Below, in pieces: positions 4,393 to 32,468 of a stretch of DNA of 64,000 nt. Position 1 is the stretch's first letter. Each line of letters starts with the position of its first letter. The stretch is taken from the IMG/VR virus record IMGVR_UViG_3300045988_099631, positions 1 through 64,000 of that record; one strand, 5' to 3'. Made by a program: the position numbers and the translations under genes. The notes beneath the pieces were generated by a model that worked only from the letters and a program-made list of their open reading frames with translations, searched no databases and was not told the DNA's origin. This stretch comes from a virus.

Positions 4393-5712
4393 TCAGATAC
4401 CCTCCAAACCGATTTCTACGCTTGATTTATATTCCCCAAACGACGCTGTTACTTCCAGTGGTGATTTGCTTGCAGTCCAGCAAGTTATTTGTGTGCTATT
4501 CCCTGCTTCCGTCGCAGTATATGACATCGTATCCGCACCAGAATAAGAGAACGTTATTTTATCTAACCGTTCTTCTCCGTTTTCAAAATACGCGGCTTCT
4601 ATTGTGACGGACTCATATGGGCGAAGCTTGTCCGGAATATTCCCTAGGAACGCGACCTCGTTTCCACTTTCCGCAGGAACAACGGTTATTTCGTATTCCT
4701 CTCTGATGCTTCGATTCTGTTCTAGTGTACAGGTCACTGTGCAAGTCCCCTCGGTTACGCCGAAAACGCTTCCATCCATACCAACGTCCGCAACATTTGT
4801 GTCGCTGCTTTCCCAAATGTAGCTGACTGGATGATCGTAGTCATGGTCTGCGTCCTTCCCCATTCTGATGCTGACAGCCTCTAGCTGCCCTGTAGCGCCA
4901 CTTTTTATGATGGGGTTTCCCTTCACCCGAATTTCCCATGAAAACGTCTTTCCGCCTGCTACATGGTTTTCCATGTCGTCAATTTCTTCGTTCGGCGGTT
5001 CATATCTAGCCGTGAATTCAAGCAGCCGGACTGAATCATAATCTCCGGTAAATTCCTGCGCGTAATCACCAAAGCCGGTGATGTGGTATGCAGCTGACCC
5101 GAGAATGATTCTGCTGTTTGTGTTAAGCTTTTTTGTTTCTTCGTTTCGCTGGCATATGATATTAACATAACCCTTTGTAATAAGGGCATATTCTTGCATA
5201 TCGCTTTCGTTTGCTGTCAGGATTGCCTTTTCGACACATATCGGTTCTTTCAGGAGATTTCCGTACCAGTCCAGATGGTTCCACGTTGACCGGCAGCGTT
5301 GTGCAACTCCGATGCCAGTTGCGTTGGAAATGTTCTGCGGGTTTGTGATAAGCCAAATGCTTCCCATTGCATCGATTTTTGTCCCTTCCGGCACATACTC
5401 AATGCTTTCATCGGCAAATATAATGTCCTTGTAATCATCCTGCTTACGGAGTGTCGATGCCGTTTTCGGTGCTATGTCCGCCATACGAATGGATGTAGTT
5501 TCCCACTCATAAAACGCATCTGGGTTCAATCCCTGCACACGCGCCTCGATAAAGTCAGAAGCATACTTCGCATACTGATGCACAAACTCTGCGCTTGGGT
5601 CTCCGAAATACTGCTTCTGCCGGCCTCTGTATTGCGATGGGGTGTTCCTGACTGCTGTTTTCAGGTGGCCGGAAGCAATCAATCCGTTCTTGATATTGTC
5701 CGAGATCGGCAT
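4393..5712 (-). CDS. Structural protein with C-terminal Ig-like (Big_2-like) domains
   Basis: 439-aa ORF. Segments such as SSDTNVADVGMDGSVFGVTEGTCTVTCT fit the bacterial Ig-like group 2 pattern. Confidence 0.45.
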   Translation of the reverse strand: MPISDNIKNGLIASGHLKTAVRNTPSQYRGRQKQYFGDPSAEFVHQYAKYASDFIEARVQGLNPDAFYEWETTSIRMADIAPKTASTLRKQDDYKDIIFADESIEYVPEGTKIDAMGSIWLITNPQNISNATGIGVAQRCRSTWNHLDWYGNLLKEPICVEKAILTANESDMQEYALITKGYVNIICQRNEETKKLNTNSRIILGSAAYHITGFGDYAQEFTGDYDSVRLLEFTARYEPPNEEIDDMENHVAGGKTFSWEIRVKGNPIIKSGATGQLEAVSIRMGKDADHDYDHPVSYIWESSDTNVADVGMDGSVFGVTEGTCTVTCTLEQNRSIREEYEITVVPAESGNEVAFLGNIPDKLRPYESVTIEAAYFENGEERLDKITFSYSGADTMSYTATEAGNSTQITCWTASKSPLEVTASFGEYKSSVEIGLEGI

Positions 5713-5739
5713 AATGTCCAGCCTCCCTTCCGATGTTTC

Positions 5740-6462
5740 TTAGAGCAGTGTGAACACGCGCCGCATGGGATTTACCTGACGCATATACGCGCATTCCTGC
5801 TCATACCCACGCAGTTCACCATAGAATAATTGTAAGTTTTCCTTGTACCGAGCCGTTGATTCCTTCATAGTGGTGTTTTCGTTCGGTGTATTAAAACTCT
5901 TGTCCTTTATTTTCGGCTGGATGTTCAGCCATTCACGGTTAAAGCGGTTATCCCATGTCACCGCGACGGCCAATCCCAATAGACGTTTCTGTTTGAGCGT
6001 AAGTTCATGATAAAAATGGCCGTCTGTATAGAAATCCAAACGATATTCGATACCTGCGTTGTCCTGCTGTGGAAATGTTACATTTCCCGTTTCGGAGTCG
6101 TAGGTAAAATCCGTGTATGGGACGAACGAAGCGTCTCCATTTCGTGCGTACTGCACACTTACGCAGCTGCAAAGTTCATATCCAACTTTTCCTGTCTGAA
6201 TCGTTGTTTCCTGCGTTGTACTGGTCTGTCCGCTTGTCCAATCGAAATCGGAATATTGTGGTTCTTCAAGTCCTTCTGTCAGGAACACAAGCAGTTCAGG
6301 TGGGCTTTTCAGCATAGGGATTGCCATTTTCACCCATGCGCTCATGCGTCGGAAAAACAGTGCTGCATCTGTTCTCAGGTCATCTGTCATTCGGTCATCG
6401 CCGATGATAACCATGGCGTGATTTGTAATGATATCGCTCCAAGAGGTTCCCATTAGTCCCAT
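5740..6462 (-). CDS. Structural-module protein (hypothetical)
   Basis: 240-aa ORF in the same operon. No recognisable motif. Confidence 0.35.
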   Translation of the reverse strand: MGLMGTSWSDIITNHAMVIIGDDRMTDDLRTDAALFFRRMSAWVKMAIPMLKSPPELLVFLTEGLEEPQYSDFDWTSGQTSTTQETTIQTGKVGYELCSCVSVQYARNGDASFVPYTDFTYDSETGNVTFPQQDNAGIEYRLDFYTDGHFYHELTLKQKRLLGLAVAVTWDNRFNREWLNIQPKIKDKSFNTPNENTTMKESTARYKENLQLFYGELRGYEQECAYMRQVNPMRRVFTLL

Positions 6463-6626
6463 TCCTCCTTTTCGTAGGAAGAATCGTTCATGGTGTTTTG
6501 GTATTCCTCCCGGATAAAATCGGCGGCAGCCTCATCCTCAATCAGAAGCAGAAGAGATTCAATGATGCCGCATAGAGCCTCAATTCTTTCCTTGCTGTCC
6601 ATGGTTCGACCGCCGCCTTTCCTATA

Positions 6627-7622
6627 TTAAGCATTGACAGTAACAGTGCATTGTGCCTGTCCTGCCAGATAGTTGTCGTTTTCTTCCTGCACGATAGACA
6701 GAACCGCATTTCCTGCATTCAGTCCCTCTATGGTGACGGTGGTGTTGTTCACAACTGGGCTGATTGCTACCGCAGAAGGGTTGCTGTTTTCGATGGTAAG
6801 CTGACTATTTGATGCAGTCGTAATCGTGAATGTTTCGGTTGTACCAGCGGACATTTCGATTGCTTCCGAACTGACGCTTAATCCAGCACTGGCCTTTGCA
6901 ATCGTCCACGGAACAATGATGGTTCCCTTATAGTTTCCGATTCCGTCAATTCGGAGGGAATATGCTCCGGCGTTCGTACCTTTGTTGTCTGATACAGTGT
7001 AGTCCGTGTCAGCCGTAAGCTCTGTTCCACCGAGCGTCACGCTTGTAACCGTTTTGGTTTGTTCACTTCCCGTATAGGTAAGCGCCGCGCTCACCACAAC
7101 TGTTGCGCTCTCAATGCTGGTCTTGACCGTTACTGCATTTTCGAGATTATAGAAGAATCCGCTGTTTACTCCGTTTGCCGTAACGATATAGCCGCCGACT
7201 TGCAGCTCATACTTTCCAGCATCGACTTCTGGAACTGTATAGCCGCCACGAGATACTTTTGCTCCAGTGACAGCGGTAAGCGTAACAACTCCATGCACCC
7301 TGTTCTGCGCCGCCCATCTGACGTGCATATAGGTAAGTGTTGTAGCTGCACTGAATACGATATATTCAATCGGGCCATAATACCGGACGGTGAATACATC
7401 GCCTTCCGGCTTTGCTGTCAGCTGCGTTTCGCGGTTCAGTTTTACCGTAAAAGATGCTGCAGCCGTCATTTCGACGCCAAGGATTTCTGCCTCTGAACCG
7501 TTCCACGGTTGGTCACTGAAGTTCGTTTCAACCACAGCCCGAACCGTCGGAAGAATGTTTTTGTTTGCCGCGTATGCGGACGCAGGCACAAAGGAAAACT
7601 CGCTATAGACAGGACTACTCAT
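6627..7622 (-). CDS. Ig-like-domain virion surface protein
   Basis: 331 aa from ATG 7622 (GGAAAGAGG RBS). C-terminal half has Ig-like repeats (…YTGSEQTKTVTSVTLGGTELTADTDYTVSDNKGTNAGAYSLRIDGIGNYKG…; …SAGTTETFTITTASNSQLTIENSNPSAVA…). Confidence 0.45.
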   Translation of the reverse strand: MSSPVYSEFSFVPASAYAANKNILPTVRAVVETNFSDQPWNGSEAEILGVEMTAAASFTVKLNRETQLTAKPEGDVFTVRYYGPIEYIVFSAATTLTYMHVRWAAQNRVHGVVTLTAVTGAKVSRGGYTVPEVDAGKYELQVGGYIVTANGVNSGFFYNLENAVTVKTSIESATVVVSAALTYTGSEQTKTVTSVTLGGTELTADTDYTVSDNKGTNAGAYSLRIDGIGNYKGTIIVPWTIAKASAGLSVSSEAIEMSAGTTETFTITTASNSQLTIENSNPSAVAISPVVNNTTVTIEGLNAGNAVLSIVQEENDNYLAGQAQCTVTVNA

Positions 7623-7661
7623 GTTAATACCTCTTTCCTGCGCCCGTATGCGGCGCAATGT

Positions 7662-8558
7662 TTACTGCGCGTCCCGCGCGTTCATTTCTTCGATAATGGA
7701 GATGAAGTCACCCCTCTGGTTCTTCGGGGTTTTGCTCATTTCGTTCAGTTTCACGACGATTTCTCGCGTGATGTTTGGATTGCCAAGCGCATATTCTTCC
7801 GCGTAGGTCTGCGCGACCATCTTCTTGTGTCCTTCGCAAAGCTTCGGGTAAAGTGACAGCATTTCATCGCTGTATTCCGCCATTTTTGCGAATACTCTCT
7901 TGTCAAGGATTTCTCCATCCTTATAGTTGACGCCAAGTGCCTCGCGCTCATCGTCACTCAGTCCGGACACAACGATCAGCCATCTGCGCGCCATAAAGAC
8001 ACGGTTCACGTCCGTCAGAACGCGGGAGAGATCACGGTGCGGCACATAGAAACTCCCACTCTTGCCTACGATCTGACCGAAGATGCCGCCTTCTCCGAAG
8101 AACACGACGTTATCATCCGCGACAGGAGCTTCCCAGAGGAAATGCACCATTTCGGAGTCATTTGCTACCTGAATAATCTGCGGAGTCACAGGTGCCTGCG
8201 GCTGTACATTTGCAACCGCCTTGGCAACCGCCTCGGCTACCATCTTCTGCACATCTGCCATCGTGAACGTCTGTTCTGCCCGCTTGTTTGTTTCCGTGTG
8301 AACTTTAACGGTTTCACCCGCCAATTCAGGCGCAACTTCCGTCAGCGGAACTTCGCTTCCGTCGTATCGGATTCCGGTCACATCATCTGCATTGACAGAC
8401 AGGATATTTCCTTTACCCGTTTCTGCCTTTTCAGCAGTATTCGCGGTCTGATCTTCTTCCGGAACATCAAAGAAAACATCTTCTTCCTTGACTTCCTCCG
8501 CCACAGGCGTTTTCTTCGGTCTTCCGGGTTTCTTTCCAGTGTTCTTGTTTTCAGCCAT
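7662..8558 (-). CDS. Head-proximal hypothetical protein
   Basis: 298 aa from ATG 8558 (AAGGAG RBS). Charged N-terminus. First gene after the capsid gene. Confidence 0.35.
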   Translation of the reverse strand: MAENKNTGKKPGRPKKTPVAEEVKEEDVFFDVPEEDQTANTAEKAETGKGNILSVNADDVTGIRYDGSEVPLTEVAPELAGETVKVHTETNKRAEQTFTMADVQKMVAEAVAKAVANVQPQAPVTPQIIQVANDSEMVHFLWEAPVADDNVVFFGEGGIFGQIVGKSGSFYVPHRDLSRVLTDVNRVFMARRWLIVVSGLSDDEREALGVNYKDGEILDKRVFAKMAEYSDEMLSLYPKLCEGHKKMVAQTYAEEYALGNPNITREIVVKLNEMSKTPKNQRGDFISIIEEMNARDAQ

Positions 8559-28960: not shown

Positions 28961-29250
28961 GATTTCTCCCGTTCTTTCAGAAAATCTTTCAGCCGTTCGC
29001 ATTCATCCATGCAGCTTCTTGTATATGGATTTCCCCACCCCGTCACGCAATCGTCGCACGGTGTCGGCGTTCCCATCAGTGATTCTTTCAGCCGTGCGTT
29101 TTCATTTGAAATCTTTTCAATCAAATCAATCGTATCATTGAAAAGCCTCTGCTTGCAGTGGACGAACGGCCTGTATCGGCATACCCCGCACTCGTTCTTT
29201 TCGTTCTGAGTACAGTATCGAAGTGCTTCCACGACCTTTTCTTTTTCCAT
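28957..29250 (-). CDS. Hypothetical protein (ALR.C…C..C…LIE.L family)
   Basis: 97 aa from ATG 29250 (TGATG overlap). EALRYC…CGVC…DLIEKISNENARLKE is related to the N-termini of 55875-56258 and 56255-56605. Confidence 0.4.
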   Translation of the reverse strand: MEKEKVVEALRYCTQNEKNECGVCRYRPFVHCKQRLFNDTIDLIEKISNENARLKESLMGTPTPCDDCVTGWGNPYTRSCMDECERLKDFLKEREKS

Positions 29251-29783
29251 CAACGTCTCCCAATTTTCAGATATTGATTTTCGTTGTGCGTGTACTCTGG
29301 GAAAAACAGGAGCAATCTCGCCGTCAATATCGCCGTCTTGGTCAGCTCCCGGTCCACGAAAAACCATCCCCTCCAGCAAAGAGAAGCGTATACGCTCTTT
29401 TCAACAAGCTCCGCGTTCTCCCTTGCGCAGTTTTTGGGGTTCCCGTCCAGCCATACAAGATTTCCGTCTTTCCCCGGAAAATACTTTTCCTTGAAATATT
29501 TGTTTGCGGCGGCATAACCGTTCTCCGTTTTCACCCTCGCTGGCTTTTTCCCATTCCATATGACCGTTCCAACGGGATTTTTCGCTCTTAACAGTTCTCT
29601 GCGTACATTGTGCGTTCCCTTGCGAATTCCAAGCTTATGCACTCTTTTTTGCAAATTGCGAAAATCTGTCGGATGCTCCGGGAACCTCGCCACAAACAGC
29701 TCTGTCAGATCATAATAAGTCCGTGCAGTTTGTGTGTGTTCCCGAAGAAAAGCGTCCTGCTCCGCAGTAAACCTAACCGCCAT
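29250..29783 (-). CDS. HNH-type homing-endonuclease-like protein (degenerate)
   Basis: 177 aa. Myb-like N-terminus (FTAEQDAFLREH…), then LVWLDGNPKNCARENAELV in place of the usual HH.DGN..NN…NL. Confidence 0.45.
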   Translation of the reverse strand: MAVRFTAEQDAFLREHTQTARTYYDLTELFVARFPEHPTDFRNLQKRVHKLGIRKGTHNVRRELLRAKNPVGTVIWNGKKPARVKTENGYAAANKYFKEKYFPGKDGNLVWLDGNPKNCARENAELVEKSVYASLCWRGWFFVDRELTKTAILTARLLLFFPEYTHNENQYLKIGRR

Positions 29784-29979
29784 TCAGTTCTCCTACAACG
29801 CTATTGATGCGCTTTCCGTCCGCTTTTGTGTATTTGTCGGCACGCATAACAACGTCGGCATTGTTTATCATCTGCTTTGCAATGCTGGCAATCGCTCTCG
29901 CGTGTTCCACGTCCGCCGTACCATTCACCATCGCAGATATCTGTTCCCCAAGAACATTTTGCAGCTCAAGTAATGTCAT
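29773..29979 (-). CDS. Small hypothetical protein
   Basis: 68 aa from ATG 29979 (ATGA overlap with the stop of the MTase ORF). Confidence 0.35.
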   Translation of the reverse strand: MTLLELQNVLGEQISAMVNGTADVEHARAIASIAKQMINNADVVMRADKYTKADGKRINSVVGELNGG

Positions 29980-31576
29980 TTCTTCACCTCCATCAGATGC
30001 CTCCACGCATCCCCATCTCCGTTTTCATCCCCAAAATGCCGTTTCGTGACCGCGATGCAAAACGGTTCAATTTCACTTGCCCACTTGACACTGTTCCAGC
30101 CGTTGAGCTGCATCCAGATCAAAGGGAATCCGCCGATCCCGTCAAAAAGACTCCCCATCGTCGCGTCGCGCTCGTATTGCGCGCAAAGCCGCTTTAGAAC
30201 CCACTTCCACGGCGGCAGTGCGATGGAGTTTCCCAGCGCCTTATACCGCGCACTGTCCGATGATTCCTTGTGAAGCTTTCCCTTTTCGTCTGTCCATGCT
30301 CCGATGTCTGTCCAACCATCAGGGAAATTTTGAAGACGCTCGCACTCCAATGGTGTCAGTCGGCGCACGATTCCGGTTGGAGCGCTTTCATGTGTATCAG
30401 GACGTTCCGCCGAACATATGAGCATATCATTGTATGCGTCCTGACCGTTGTAACTTCCTGCATGAGCGCCTGGTGAAAGTGTCCCTGCGACTTTCTGATA
30501 TGTCAGCGGCACTTGATTTCCGCCCGTTCCCATCCTGCTTTGTAGCGTCGGCACTACCTCCCCGCACTCTCGGATCACGTCGTTTGCATGGCTCATGTCC
30601 AGAATTGCCGGTTTGTTTCCGCCGCACTCCGCATTAAGTGTGGGGCTCAGTTCTTCGGCATACCCGATGCTCCGCGCATTTTCGCCATTGCCAAGCTTAA
30701 ATCCCGCGCAATACACGCCATGCCTGTCGGCAGCCGTGAGCGTCGGAGAGGGTTCCCCGTCGTGTCCCACTCCGAGTCCGTTTCCCGCACCATCGTCTTT
30801 TCTGGTGTCACCACCGCCAGAGAATCGAGTTGCCTTGTCGTTGATAGGTACACAGAAAACGCTTTGTCTGTTCTGACCGATATTTTCCCGCGCTGGAAGC
30901 GTAGGCCAAATTCCGTCCGCGCCGTATACACGATTTGTCTGCGTATCATACGGGGTCAGGCATCCTGCCCATGCGCCTGATTCGTGAGTGCCGCTTTCAG
31001 TGCCTCTGGAAGATCCTTCCCCCGCTTCTCCGCCCGCCGCAGGATGCCCATACACGCCTTTGGTGTTAAAGAGTATTTCGTGTGCGGTCGTTCCTCCAAA
31101 ATCTGCGACAAGCGCGATTCTACGGCGGCGTTGGGGCACTCCCCACCATTGCGCGTCGAGCACGCGCCAAGCCACGCTCCATCGTCCGTCCACGTCCCTG
31201 TACCCCCCCCCAAGTTGGCCACCCCTTGTCAGGCACTTGAATATCGGGAGCTTCCGGCTCTGCGACGCGGATTGCTTCTTCGAGGACTGCCGCGAAGTCA
31301 CGGCCCTTTTGGCTACTCTGGGCACCAACGACGTTTTCCCATACCATGTATCTTGGTCGAACAAACTCACCTGTCCGTCCGGTCTTTCTGTCATGCTCTC
31401 GCATCTCCTTGATAATTCTGATTTGTTCCATGAAAAGGCCAGAACGTTCGCCTGCAAGTCCTTTGCGCTTTCCAGCTATTGACAAGTCCTGTCTAACAAG
31501 GTGAACCACCAATTATGCAGTCAACCGGTTCGATTTCCGCGCCGTTGATTTTGCAAATATCGCCAAGATGAATCAC
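29976..31576 (-). pseudogene. C5-cytosine DNA methyltransferase, motif order IV-VI-VIII-TRD-IX-X-I-II, two frame breaks
   Basis: GGSPC|TAG (31493-31495), then QDLSIAGKRKGL…WENV in the next frame. After the G9 tract come WGVPQRRRRIALVADFGG, RRLTPLECERLQNFPDGW and GNSIALP, then MGSLFDGIGGF…WASEIEPF at the C-terminal end. Confidence 0.6.
31203..31211 (-). repeat. Homopolymeric G9 (C9 on plus strand) inside the methyltransferase
   Basis: tacccccccccaag read directly. It lies exactly where the reading frames change. Confidence 0.9.
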
Positions 31577-31909
31577 CTAAATCACCCCCAGTTTTTTCTT
31601 GTAGTTGTATACGGTTCTCCTGGTTATGCCGAGCTCCGCGCAGATCTTCGCTTGTGGTGTCTTCAACTGAATCATTTCCTTCAGCCGGTTCAAGTCAATC
31701 TGTCCACCGATGTTTGGCCTTCCAGGCTTTTCTCTTTTACCACCTTCCAGACAGTTGCAGCACTCCGAGCTGGCATACGGACAATGATGGAGGCAGAAAT
31801 CAATTTCGTCCTGCGTATCGCAAGTGTGGCTTTCTACTGGGTCTTCCCGGTAAGCACTGTTCCACGGCGCAACTGCCAGCCTGAAAACATTTTCGCGCAT
31901 CGATTCCAT
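31577..31909 (-). CDS. Cys-rich protein with C-terminal HTH
   Basis: 110 aa. The C-terminus KICAELGITRRTVYNYKKKLG is a resolvase/terminase-type HTH. Confidence 0.45.
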   Translation of the reverse strand: MESMRENVFRLAVAPWNSAYREDPVESHTCDTQDEIDFCLHHCPYASSECCNCLEGGKREKPGRPNIGGQIDLNRLKEMIQLKTPQAKICAELGITRRTVYNYKKKLGVI

Positions 31910-31925: not shown

Positions 31926-32468
31926 TCAAACTTCCGTTATTCTGATTCCGTGTATCCAGAGCATTAGTTTCCGCTTCAGTACAAACTTCGCATAAGGTGC
32001 CGAAGACGGATTTCTGTAGCCCTTCGAGTCCTCCACGATTGTTTCTCCATCCTTCTCGTAAACGAAATCGGCGATATAAGACACCTTCCGTTCAAGAAGA
32101 ATGCGCTTGTCCTTGATTCTCGCTCCATGCTTTCCGTATTGCTCGACGGTTTTATATTGCGCTGGAATCAGGAGGTATTCTTTCTGCCATTCAAGGTTCT
32201 GAATAACTCCCTGTTTTTCCAAAAGCACGAGTTCATCGTACCGATCCGCCTCACGCTTGCTGTCGAAGGTCTTGCCTCCGCGAGTAACCTTCTTGTTTCG
32301 CAGTTTTGGTGGCTTATCGGTTTTGCCCTTTTTCACAGCTACTTTCCGATTTTCGGCCTTGTCCGAGGACTGTATTGACGCCCTCCGCTGCATTTCTTGT
32401 ATGATCTTTTGCTCCGCCTGCCGTCTGTATGGCTCCGGCAAGTCAGATAGGCTAATTCCCTTTCCCAT
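31926..32468 (-). CDS. DUF1064-family protein
   Basis: 180 aa. GGKTFDSKREADRYDEL.LLEKQGVI…YIADFVY…VEDSKG matches the DUF1064 pattern. Confidence 0.5.
   Translation of the reverse strand: MGKGISLSDLPEPYRRQAEQKIIQEMQRRASIQSSDKAENRKVAVKKGKTDKPPKLRNKKVTRGGKTFDSKREADRYDELVLLEKQGVIQNLEWQKEYLLIPAQYKTVEQYGKHGARIKDKRILLERKVSYIADFVYEKDGETIVEDSKGYRNPSSAPYAKFVLKRKLMLWIHGIRITEV

Follow-up and report, generated by a model that had tools for sequence, protein, structure and literature searches.

A naturally permuted phage cytosine methyltransferase gene with a conserved TAGN element after its catalytic cysteine codon

Within a 64,000-nucleotide (nt) stretch of viral DNA (positions 1 to 64,000 of IMG/VR record IMGVR_UViG_3300045988_099631; hereafter the window, meaning the whole stretch that was analysed), a gene on the minus strand appears to encode a C5-cytosine methyltransferase whose conserved motifs run in the circularly permuted order III-IV...X-I-II. 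Its reading frame is broken twice, once by a TAGA immediately after the codon for the catalytic cysteine (TAGN in the wider family) and once by a run of nine Gs. Our leading interpretation, which we hold tentatively and with a little under even confidence, is that this is a natural permuted enzyme with a selected TAGA that is crossed by a +1 frameshift, and that a private G9 leaves the present copy off.

The gene opens with a GTG (31576-31574) that lies directly 3' of the TAG (31579-31577) ending an upstream helix-turn-helix (HTH) gene. In frame 0, this leader open reading frame (ORF; 31493..31576) comprises 27 codons, VIHLGDICKINGAEIEPVDCIIGGSPC, which include motif III (HLGDI) and motif IV (GGSPC) as far as the catalytic cysteine, and it is then closed by TAG 31495-31493. 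It ends within a 19-nt cassette, GGT GGT TCA CCT TGT TAG A (31492..31510), that holds both the TAGA (31495-31492) and, in the +1 frame, a second GTG (31509-31507). One base beyond the TAG, CAG GAC TTG TCA reads QDLS in the +1 frame; without any repair the PC and the Q of motif IV differ in frame, and when TAGA is taken out the motif reads GGSPCQDLS. The first part of the main ORF (31212..31491; QDLSIAGK...) holds the remainder of motif IV and motif VI (WENV, 31341-31330), and runs into nine Gs (31203..31211; codons Trp-Gly-Gly with one G in excess), where a second +1 shift parts motifs IV-VI from motif VIII onward. With one G removed, the protein reads ...KGWPTWGGYRDVDGRWSVAWRV. In the third frame, the second part of the main ORF (30366..31202) begins with motif VIII (VPQRRRRIALV, 31139-31107) and a variable region, followed in 29976..30365 by motif IX (30365-30312) and motif X (30245-30213). 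Without any stop, the frame then passes through the junction ERDAT-MGS (30173-30150) into MGSLFDGIGGF, with motif I as LFDGIGGF (30149-30126), to motif II (WASEIEPF, 30083-30060), a short tail and TGA 29978-29976. An earlier reading of the letters alone (the sequence-only reading) had described the GTG and TAG positions, the frames, the TAGA and G deletions and the motif order, and its description proved exact to the base.

When both frame breaks were conceptually removed, the repaired 531-amino-acid (aa) protein, on which these profile matches were computed, matched PF00145 (E 5e-33; 115 bits against a cut-off of 22) and TIGR00675 (114.4 bits against a curated cut-off of 100.65). All of the C5 motifs were found: FxGxGG (I), the acidic residue of motif II, PCQ (IV), ENV (VI), QxRxR (VIII), IX and the GN of motif X. 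By these measures of sequence, the locus is a member of a large (pro)phage family of C5-cytosine methyltransferases from gut Clostridia/Oscillospiraceae. The variable region (~245 aa) contains five xPTL-type segments (30911-30471), taken as putative tandem target-recognition modules, and whole modules of it are gained or lost among close relatives. A long modular region of this kind, its recognition modules being putative, would be the hallmark of a multispecific phage methyltransferase. Enzymes of the SPR / phi3T type carry several tandem target-recognition modules between motifs VIII and IX, with one specificity each. We found no near-identical DNA among GenBank phages, where the protein-level relatives were uncultivated gut phages and enzymes of canonical motif order.

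Permutation between motifs II and III

IMG/VR holds 417 stretches that encode relatives of the window enzyme, of which 80 were fetched by protein similarity, 63 of them with an unbroken reading frame. In every one of these 63, motif I lies ~28 residues past motif X in the same frame, and no relative had a stop codon or a ribosome-binding site between motif X and MGSLFDG. At the other end, the ORF starts with motif III (M/V-x-H-L-G-D-I...) in 80/80 of the fetched loci, generally preceded by a Shine-Dalgarno sequence. Among 5.8 billion proteins searched, there were hundreds of homologues for which one local alignment spanned 95% of the permuted query. The sequence-only reading had wavered between a decaying duplicated gene and a genuinely permuted IV...X-I-II enzyme, and had proposed looking among intact homologues for the in-frame junction or, to the contrary, for a stop and ribosome-binding site ahead of MGSLFDG. 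It is the junction that we find, and the idea of a decaying gene gives way before an order that is the norm of the family and before the purifying selection seen on both sides of the TAGA (see below). The permutation between motifs II and III is thus natural and not a mark of decay.

Most of the fetched ORFs end shortly past motif II (~10-25 residues). The end of the present gene had been put down to truncation where a downstream 68-aa/HNH cassette begins, but relatives with quite different C-terminal tails also end just past motif II, and we abandon that explanation. Some loci (L011, L012, L016-L018, L025, L027, L032, L034 and L035) have a ~55-aa C-terminal extension past motif II, which is Cys-rich (...PPAYTCPICPVCG...GCPECV...) and possibly a zinc ribbon.

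The position of the breakpoint follows from BLASTP alignment with the canonical enzyme of Streptococcus phage Javan422 (QBX27888), which reads MGSLFSGSGGF...WNSEVEPFPILVTRKNLPE-VKHLGNIQKING...GSPCQDLSIAGKR. Residues 1-462 of the window enzyme align with residues 46-471 of this protein (E 5e-63) and residues 471-512 with residues 3-42 (52% identity, E 3e-7), two blocks that depart from the canonical linear order of I to X and therefore place the breakpoint between motifs II and III. On this alignment, the window enzyme is a formal circular permutation of the Javan422 enzyme. The junction fuses the canonical C-terminal helix straight to the old initiator Met-Gly-Ser-Leu-Phe, and an origin by tandem duplication and fusion, with both outer ends then lost, would fit, much as the sequence-only reading had supposed. 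Canonical-order relatives exist at ~35-55% identity and include IMG/VR loci (L250, L253 and L264 among them), several of which read ...WASEIEEFPIAVTKLRFPYMKHYGDITKING.... They share with the permuted family MGSLFxGxGGF, WxSEhEPFPI, VKHLGxIxKING, GSPCQDLSIAGKR and a long variable region, but their motifs run from I to X as usual, and none was seen to carry TAGN.

Permutation of this fold has been explored by engineering. Ten active topologies of permuted M.MpeI and M.SssI have been constructed by Slaska-Kiss et al. (2018; PMC5944983), and those of Class B, whose new N-terminus falls between motifs II and III, were by far the most active permutants. In the same study, 27 natural permuted enzymes were retrieved from REBASE, every one with its permutation in the variable region in the manner of M.BssHII; the paper reports that Class B topology occurs in no natural enzyme, and the authors were puzzled by its absence (PMC5944983). 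The window enzyme has the features of this class, with an ORF that starts x-H-L-G-D-I and old C- and N-termini fused directly at ERDAT-MGSLF. Whereas the engineered Class B enzymes are laboratory constructs of CG-specific methyltransferases, however, the window family is natural and widespread and has a long multi-module variable region. Enzymes of the M.BssHII / M.Alw26I / M.Esp3I type (Type H) also have a permuted C5 fold, probably by duplication and fusion, but their breakpoint lies in the variable region and places IX-X before I-VIII; in the window family, with its N-terminus at motif III and its variable region internal, the cut through both structural domains is a different one. In the literature that was searched, including that after 2018, no natural C5 enzyme permuted between motifs II and III was found. 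Within a known enzyme class, the family represents a natural topology that is new, and one that appears to have gone unremarked.

The TAGN element and its conservation

Pattern scans for GGSPC-TAG-N-CAR GAY identified at least 161 IMG/VR loci, and the TAGN element is present in 7 GTDB genomes, including cultured Oscillibacter sp. 1-3 and Dysosmobacter/Oscillospiraceae metagenome-assembled genomes. Many of the nearest protein clusters open with MVHLVRQDLS..., which is the +1-frame reading of the cassette: among the best 120 clusters, 96 start in the +1 frame (MVHLVRQDLS... type), 17 start at a later Met and 6 are intact, gene callers having started the ORFs of TAGN alleles at an internal GTG or TTG. 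The leaders themselves are very diverse (for example VKHLGDITKINGAEIEPVWCITGGSPC, VKHYGDVTKIHGNEVEPVDCVIGGSPC, VEHLGDITKLNGYELPTVDVVIGGSPC and VYHFGDITQINGANVPVVDIITGGSPC).

The element is under strict constraint at the level of individual bases. In an exhaustive IMG/VR scan, there were no TAA-N or TGA-N versions of the cassette and only 2 TGC-TAG alleles, both truncated elsewhere, making TGT essentially invariant; the fourth base, among the matches listed, was A in 119, C in 36, T in 4 and G in 0. When synonymous entropy was analysed in 34 diverged TAGN alleles, thinned to no more than 93% identity, synonymous variation was seen to collapse only at the five pre-stop codons GGT GGT TCA CCT TGT, and to be free from codon -6 upstream and from the Gln codon onward. 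Intact alleles have mixed codons at these five positions (TCG CCA TGC in the closest intact relatives), with GGT rare at codon -5. Alleles whose cassette deviates from the consensus have a truncated ORF in 10/12 cases, compared with 44/92 consensus alleles (Fisher p = 0.03). In IMG/VR a single allele, L363 (IMGVR_UViG_3300028797_001476, 7686-7723), has an additional codon in frame between Cys and Gln, and reads GGT GGT TCA CCT TGC TGA CAG GAC; the codon is an in-frame TGA, not TAG+N, and the ORF is then open for ~155 codons.

The leader start is equally uniform, being GTG behind AGGAGGTGATTTAG in 83/83 unique TAGN leaders, compared with ATG in 71/96 intact alleles. In each of these leaders the GTG stands behind AGGAGGTGAT-TTAG (31577-31589 in the window), whereas intact alleles mostly have ATG and other spacers; with GTG directly after the TTAG spacer, there is therefore an in-frame TAG both before the leader start and at its end. 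We considered read-through from the upstream HTH gene and rejected it: the in-frame 'xVI*V' consists of the Shine-Dalgarno sequence GGAGGTGAT and the TTAG spacer, and is a ribosome-binding site, because the same GGAGGTGATTTAG follows unrelated upstream genes in other phages. Reassignment of TAG was likewise rejected, since coding density under the standard code is 88%, TAG terminates 11 genes and reading TAG as sense brings no gain. A suppressor tRNA was rejected too. The window contained no tRNA, transfer-messenger RNA or Rfam family, and a search for an invertible segment or repeats around both breaks gave weak, chance-level repeats only.

To measure selection, 105 unique TAGN alleles were joined in a minimum spanning tree and substitutions were counted along its 85 edges below 12% divergence. 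Leader codons -26..-6 in frame 0 had accumulated 73 synonymous and 42 non-synonymous changes, a ratio of non-synonymous to synonymous rates (pN/pS) of 0.149 (p = 3e-23 versus neutrality), and the first 60 codons of the main ORF in the +1 frame 278 and 126 (pN/pS 0.137), whereas wrong-frame controls on the same sequences gave 1.2-2.6. In the five pre-stop codons pS was 0.016, compared with 0.066-0.078 in the flanks. Not one of the TAGN leaders listed, from at least 161 loci, contained a stop or indel, and the S-adenosylmethionine (AdoMet) motifs I and II and the ENV of motif VI are invariant in TAGN alleles. Furthermore, the nearest neighbour of the leader was another TAGN allele for 24/25 diverged TAGN alleles (mean nucleotide distance 0.345), compared with 17-19/25 for the main ORF, which marks the 5' module as old and inherited, whereas the gene body recombines; a tree of leader and main ORF needed ~10 state changes. 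These patterns identify the TAGA after the catalytic cysteine codon as an old, inherited and selected element, with leader and main ORF each evidently under purifying selection in its own frame. Purifying selection on both sides, together with the age of the leader module, indicates that the gene is expressed across the TAGN break, and that the leader, with its catalytic Cys and the motif III that contacts AdoMet, is evidently still used.

These data bear directly on the view that TAGN is a dead allele, an inactivating insertion spread by recombination or hitch-hiking (for example by escaping methylation-dependent restriction) in a decaying pseudogene. Genes of the family are indeed often broken in other ways, through G-tract indels, out-of-frame module junctions or a mobile element after motif VI; truncation is commoner in TAGN than in intact alleles; and the present copy also has G9. 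However, substitutions within TAGN clades are strongly biased to synonymous changes on both sides of the break, the leader is deeply diverged yet free of stops and indels, and a null allele leaves the constraint on TAG, TGT and the preceding codons unexplained, which makes this view improbable. Nor are the two breaks equivalent lesions, as had been thought at first, since the TAGA is conserved and selected at no fewer than 161 phage loci and the G9 alone is private. No feature of such data is more prone to error than homopolymer length, and a sequencing error would be plausible for the G9 alone, but the same motif order and TAGN recur in hundreds of independent assemblies from many samples, as well as in an isolate genome, and an assembly or sequencing artefact in the permuted order, the TAGA or the G9 strikes us as highly improbable.

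Possible modes of translation across the stop codon

If the TAGN break is crossed by a frameshift, ribosomes would initiate at the leader GTG and, at UGU-UAG-A, a fraction of them would shift +1 while the weak stop, read only by release factor 1 (RF1), occupies the A site. The shifted ribosomes would read AGA-CAG onward, to yield a single chain, GGSPC-(R)-QDLS. Because only a fraction would shift at the stop, the cassette would throttle or condition the synthesis of a potentially toxic enzyme. Such a mechanism is in keeping with the strict use of TAG, an RF1-only stop, and of UGU, with its P-site wobble pair, with the A/C bias of the fourth base, which gives weak termination contexts, with a constraint that does not extend beyond the 15 nt 5' of the stop, and with a site ~27 codons from the start.

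In bacteria, prfB (RF2) is expressed through a programmed +1 frameshift, and structural genes of Listeria phage PSA are also +1 frameshifted. TAGN resembles prfB in its leader (~26 codons in prfB), the ~15 nt of constrained 5' sequence, the weak stop context and the in-frame stop at the shift site, which in TAGN genes is kept across diverged homologues with both frames under coding constraint. The two differ in the site itself, CUU-UGA in prfB and UGU-UAG in TAGN, where the frameshift is inferred from sequence.

A number of observations weigh against our interpretation. UGU does not re-pair in the +1 frame (GUU), and the Gly-Gly codons GGUGGU stand 6 nt from the P-site codon and are never the better Shine-Dalgarno-like GGAGG, whereas prfB has both a re-pairing P-site codon and a Shine-Dalgarno-like element ~3 nt upstream. 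No conserved RNA structure was found 3' of the stop (-3.9 kcal/mol, no covariation). The conserved block coincides exactly with the overlap of the +1-frame GTG and the TAG, as restart predicts. In a frameshift product the catalytic Cys would be separated from Gln by an additional Arg or Ser, and IMG/VR contains no alleles in which a sense codon has become fixed at this point. Full-length ORFs are found in 50/104 TAGN alleles, compared with 40/51 intact alleles; purifying selection could look stronger than it is if TAGN alleles recombine with intact ones; and an AlphaFold2 model of the intact relative P0013, built from a 48-sequence alignment, was unusable (mean predicted local distance difference test score, pLDDT, 29).

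The coincidence of the conserved block with the overlap raises the alternative of a two-chain enzyme made by translational coupling, in which the 27-aa leader terminates at the TAG and ribosomes restart at the +1 GTG 14 nt upstream. The product would be M-V-H-L-V-R-QDLS... together with a leader peptide (motif III, strand 4 and the catalytic Cys) assembling in trans. A +1-frame GTG is present six codons before the Gln in 72/79 TAGN contexts and some start in 76/79, the three exceptions being otherwise truncated; the rarity of GGT at codon -5 in intact alleles, the match of the constrained block to the 17-nt overlap of both ORFs and the selection that maintains the leader point the same way, and there is precedent for split C5 enzymes and for complementing fragments (PMC5944983). 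Yet the cut would fall straight after the catalytic Cys, leaving a 27-residue subunit to supply a central strand, no Shine-Dalgarno sequence precedes the internal GTG, and neither the ban on TGC in place of TGT nor the use of TAG but never TAA is explained, although the +1 codon accepts both Arg and Ser. M.AquI and M.EcoHK31I are naturally split C5 enzymes, made as two polypeptides from adjacent or overlapping ORFs, but their split lies in the variable region and not in motif IV. We consider a two-chain enzyme possible but doubtful, and rank the frameshift slightly above termination and restart; a working enzyme follows from either, and either would be unusual.

It could also be that the main ORF encodes a Cys-less, non-catalytic DNA-binding protein, a decoy or regulator, with the leader serving only as a coupling upstream ORF. 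Gene callers do place the start at the internal GTG or TTG, and the break falls exactly at the nucleophile. In such a protein, however, one would not look for leader residues, including HxGDI and GGSPC, under the same purifying selection as the rest, or for the invariance of motifs I, II and VI noted above, and we judge this unlikely.

Returning to the frameshift, a bolder proposal, which we put forward with rather less confidence than the interpretation as a whole, is that the 19-nt GGU GGU UCA CCU UGU UAG N may act in bacteria and phages as a new and widespread site of programmed +1 frameshifting that depends on RF1 and involves no re-pairing, placed on the catalytic Cys codon of a natural Class-B-permuted, multi-module phage methyltransferase. 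In the literature we found no report of a frameshift in a phage cytosine methyltransferase.

G tracts, other frame breaks and gene neighbourhood

In the window copy, translation past the G9 ends 33 codons later, so that a full-length enzyme could arise only through slippage. G8, in frame, is found in the nearest relative, L002 (on a 105.6-kb contig; 98.5% identity over 5.5 kb), and in seven others (L001 and L004-L009), while L003 has G7; all nine of these relatives have TAGN, as TAGA in seven and TAGC in L004 and L006. One G8 allele is that in contig IMGVR_UViG_3300045988_102837. Across the family the tract has up to 5 Gs, or is G7, G8 or G9, and 13/72 alleles with G7-G9 are out of frame at the tract (both +1 and -1), compared with 0/76 alleles with 5 Gs or fewer. 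This identifies the G9 as a private +1 length variant of what is evidently a hypermutable G tract. Given that the tract is hypermutable family-wide, the present copy is probably off: the extra G would halt even frameshifted ribosomes, unless the tract slipped to G8. The suggestion of the sequence-only reading that the enzyme is currently switched off is thus plausible as far as the G9 is concerned, but the TAGA is not the cause.

In phase-variable methyltransferase genes (phasevarions; Srikhanta et al. 2010, cited in PMC3711429), a homopolymer inside the ORF toggles the frame through its length. The G tract behaves similarly, in that an intragenic homopolymer differs among close relatives and toggles the frame (G9 here, G8 in L002). 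Those genes, however, are chromosomal Type III mod genes of pathogens, whereas the G tract belongs to a phage C5 enzyme and was compared between relatives only. G tracts of this family may be on/off sites of high mutability; individual cases could be sequencing errors.

Other frame breaks were observed elsewhere in the family. One recognition module has a second poly-G tract, CGC ATC MGG GGG GGC TGT GAC (RIRGGCDGGG), ~530 nt past the Gln codon; among the loci concerned (L042, L046, L037, L041 and L076-L080), G7 is in frame, and G8, found in several unrelated lineages, leads to RIRGGL*. In L036, L057, L062, L064, L073, L074, L083, L106, L131 and others, the ORF ends at 202 aa (...ARADGSPCADRGPNIVCSPHQGGL*), where a recognition module meets the following module (TSYAVRIRGGCDGGGK...) one base out of frame. 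This 202-aa class occurs both with and without TAGN, and represents either a dead allele that its members share or a further shift site. In several TAGN alleles, L366 (Oscillibacter sp. 1-3, NZ_KE159710.1, ~5300-7960), L232, L167 and L119, readability is lost just past motif VI (WENVP|YALKHIRYVMNRKQLC...); in L366, three consecutive tyrosine recombinases on the opposite strand follow motif VI, and the insert looks like a mobile element of the 'recombinase in trio' type within the gene.

The methyltransferase gene sits among genes of DNA metabolism. Upstream, on the minus strand, is the 110-aa gene with a resolvase-type HTH (31577..31909; PF02796 HTH_7, E 3e-7), whose final codons, GGG GTG ATT TAG, also provide the methyltransferase leader with its Shine-Dalgarno sequence and spacer; it is neighboured by a DUF1064 protein (31926-32468; Pfam E 2e-14). 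Downstream, also on the minus strand, a 68-aa ORF (29773..29979) overlaps the methyltransferase stop (ATGA); it has a weak match to PHROG 2044 and lies outside the enzyme. The next ORF, of 177 aa (29250..29783, minus strand), matches the HNH-endonuclease family phrog_1891 (E 1.6e-10) over residues 107-168 only, and Pfam and NCBIfam profile searches gave no match for it.

The family indicates that nature does use the II|III topology, and at large scale, in gut phages, which fills the gap left by the 2018 engineering study. Whichever way the TAG is passed, the mechanism would be unusual, being either a +1 frameshift without re-pairing or an enzyme split after its nucleophile. There is also a practical consequence, since genes with TAGN get called N-terminally truncated or pseudogenes, and annotation pipelines and REBASE-type surveys miss them. 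If the frameshift site is real, the cassette and the hypermutable G tracts would together provide layered translational and mutational control of the phages' epigenetic armour. The swappable recognition modules and the on/off G tracts suggest a fast change of methylation repertoire, which bears on the conflict between gut phages and their hosts.

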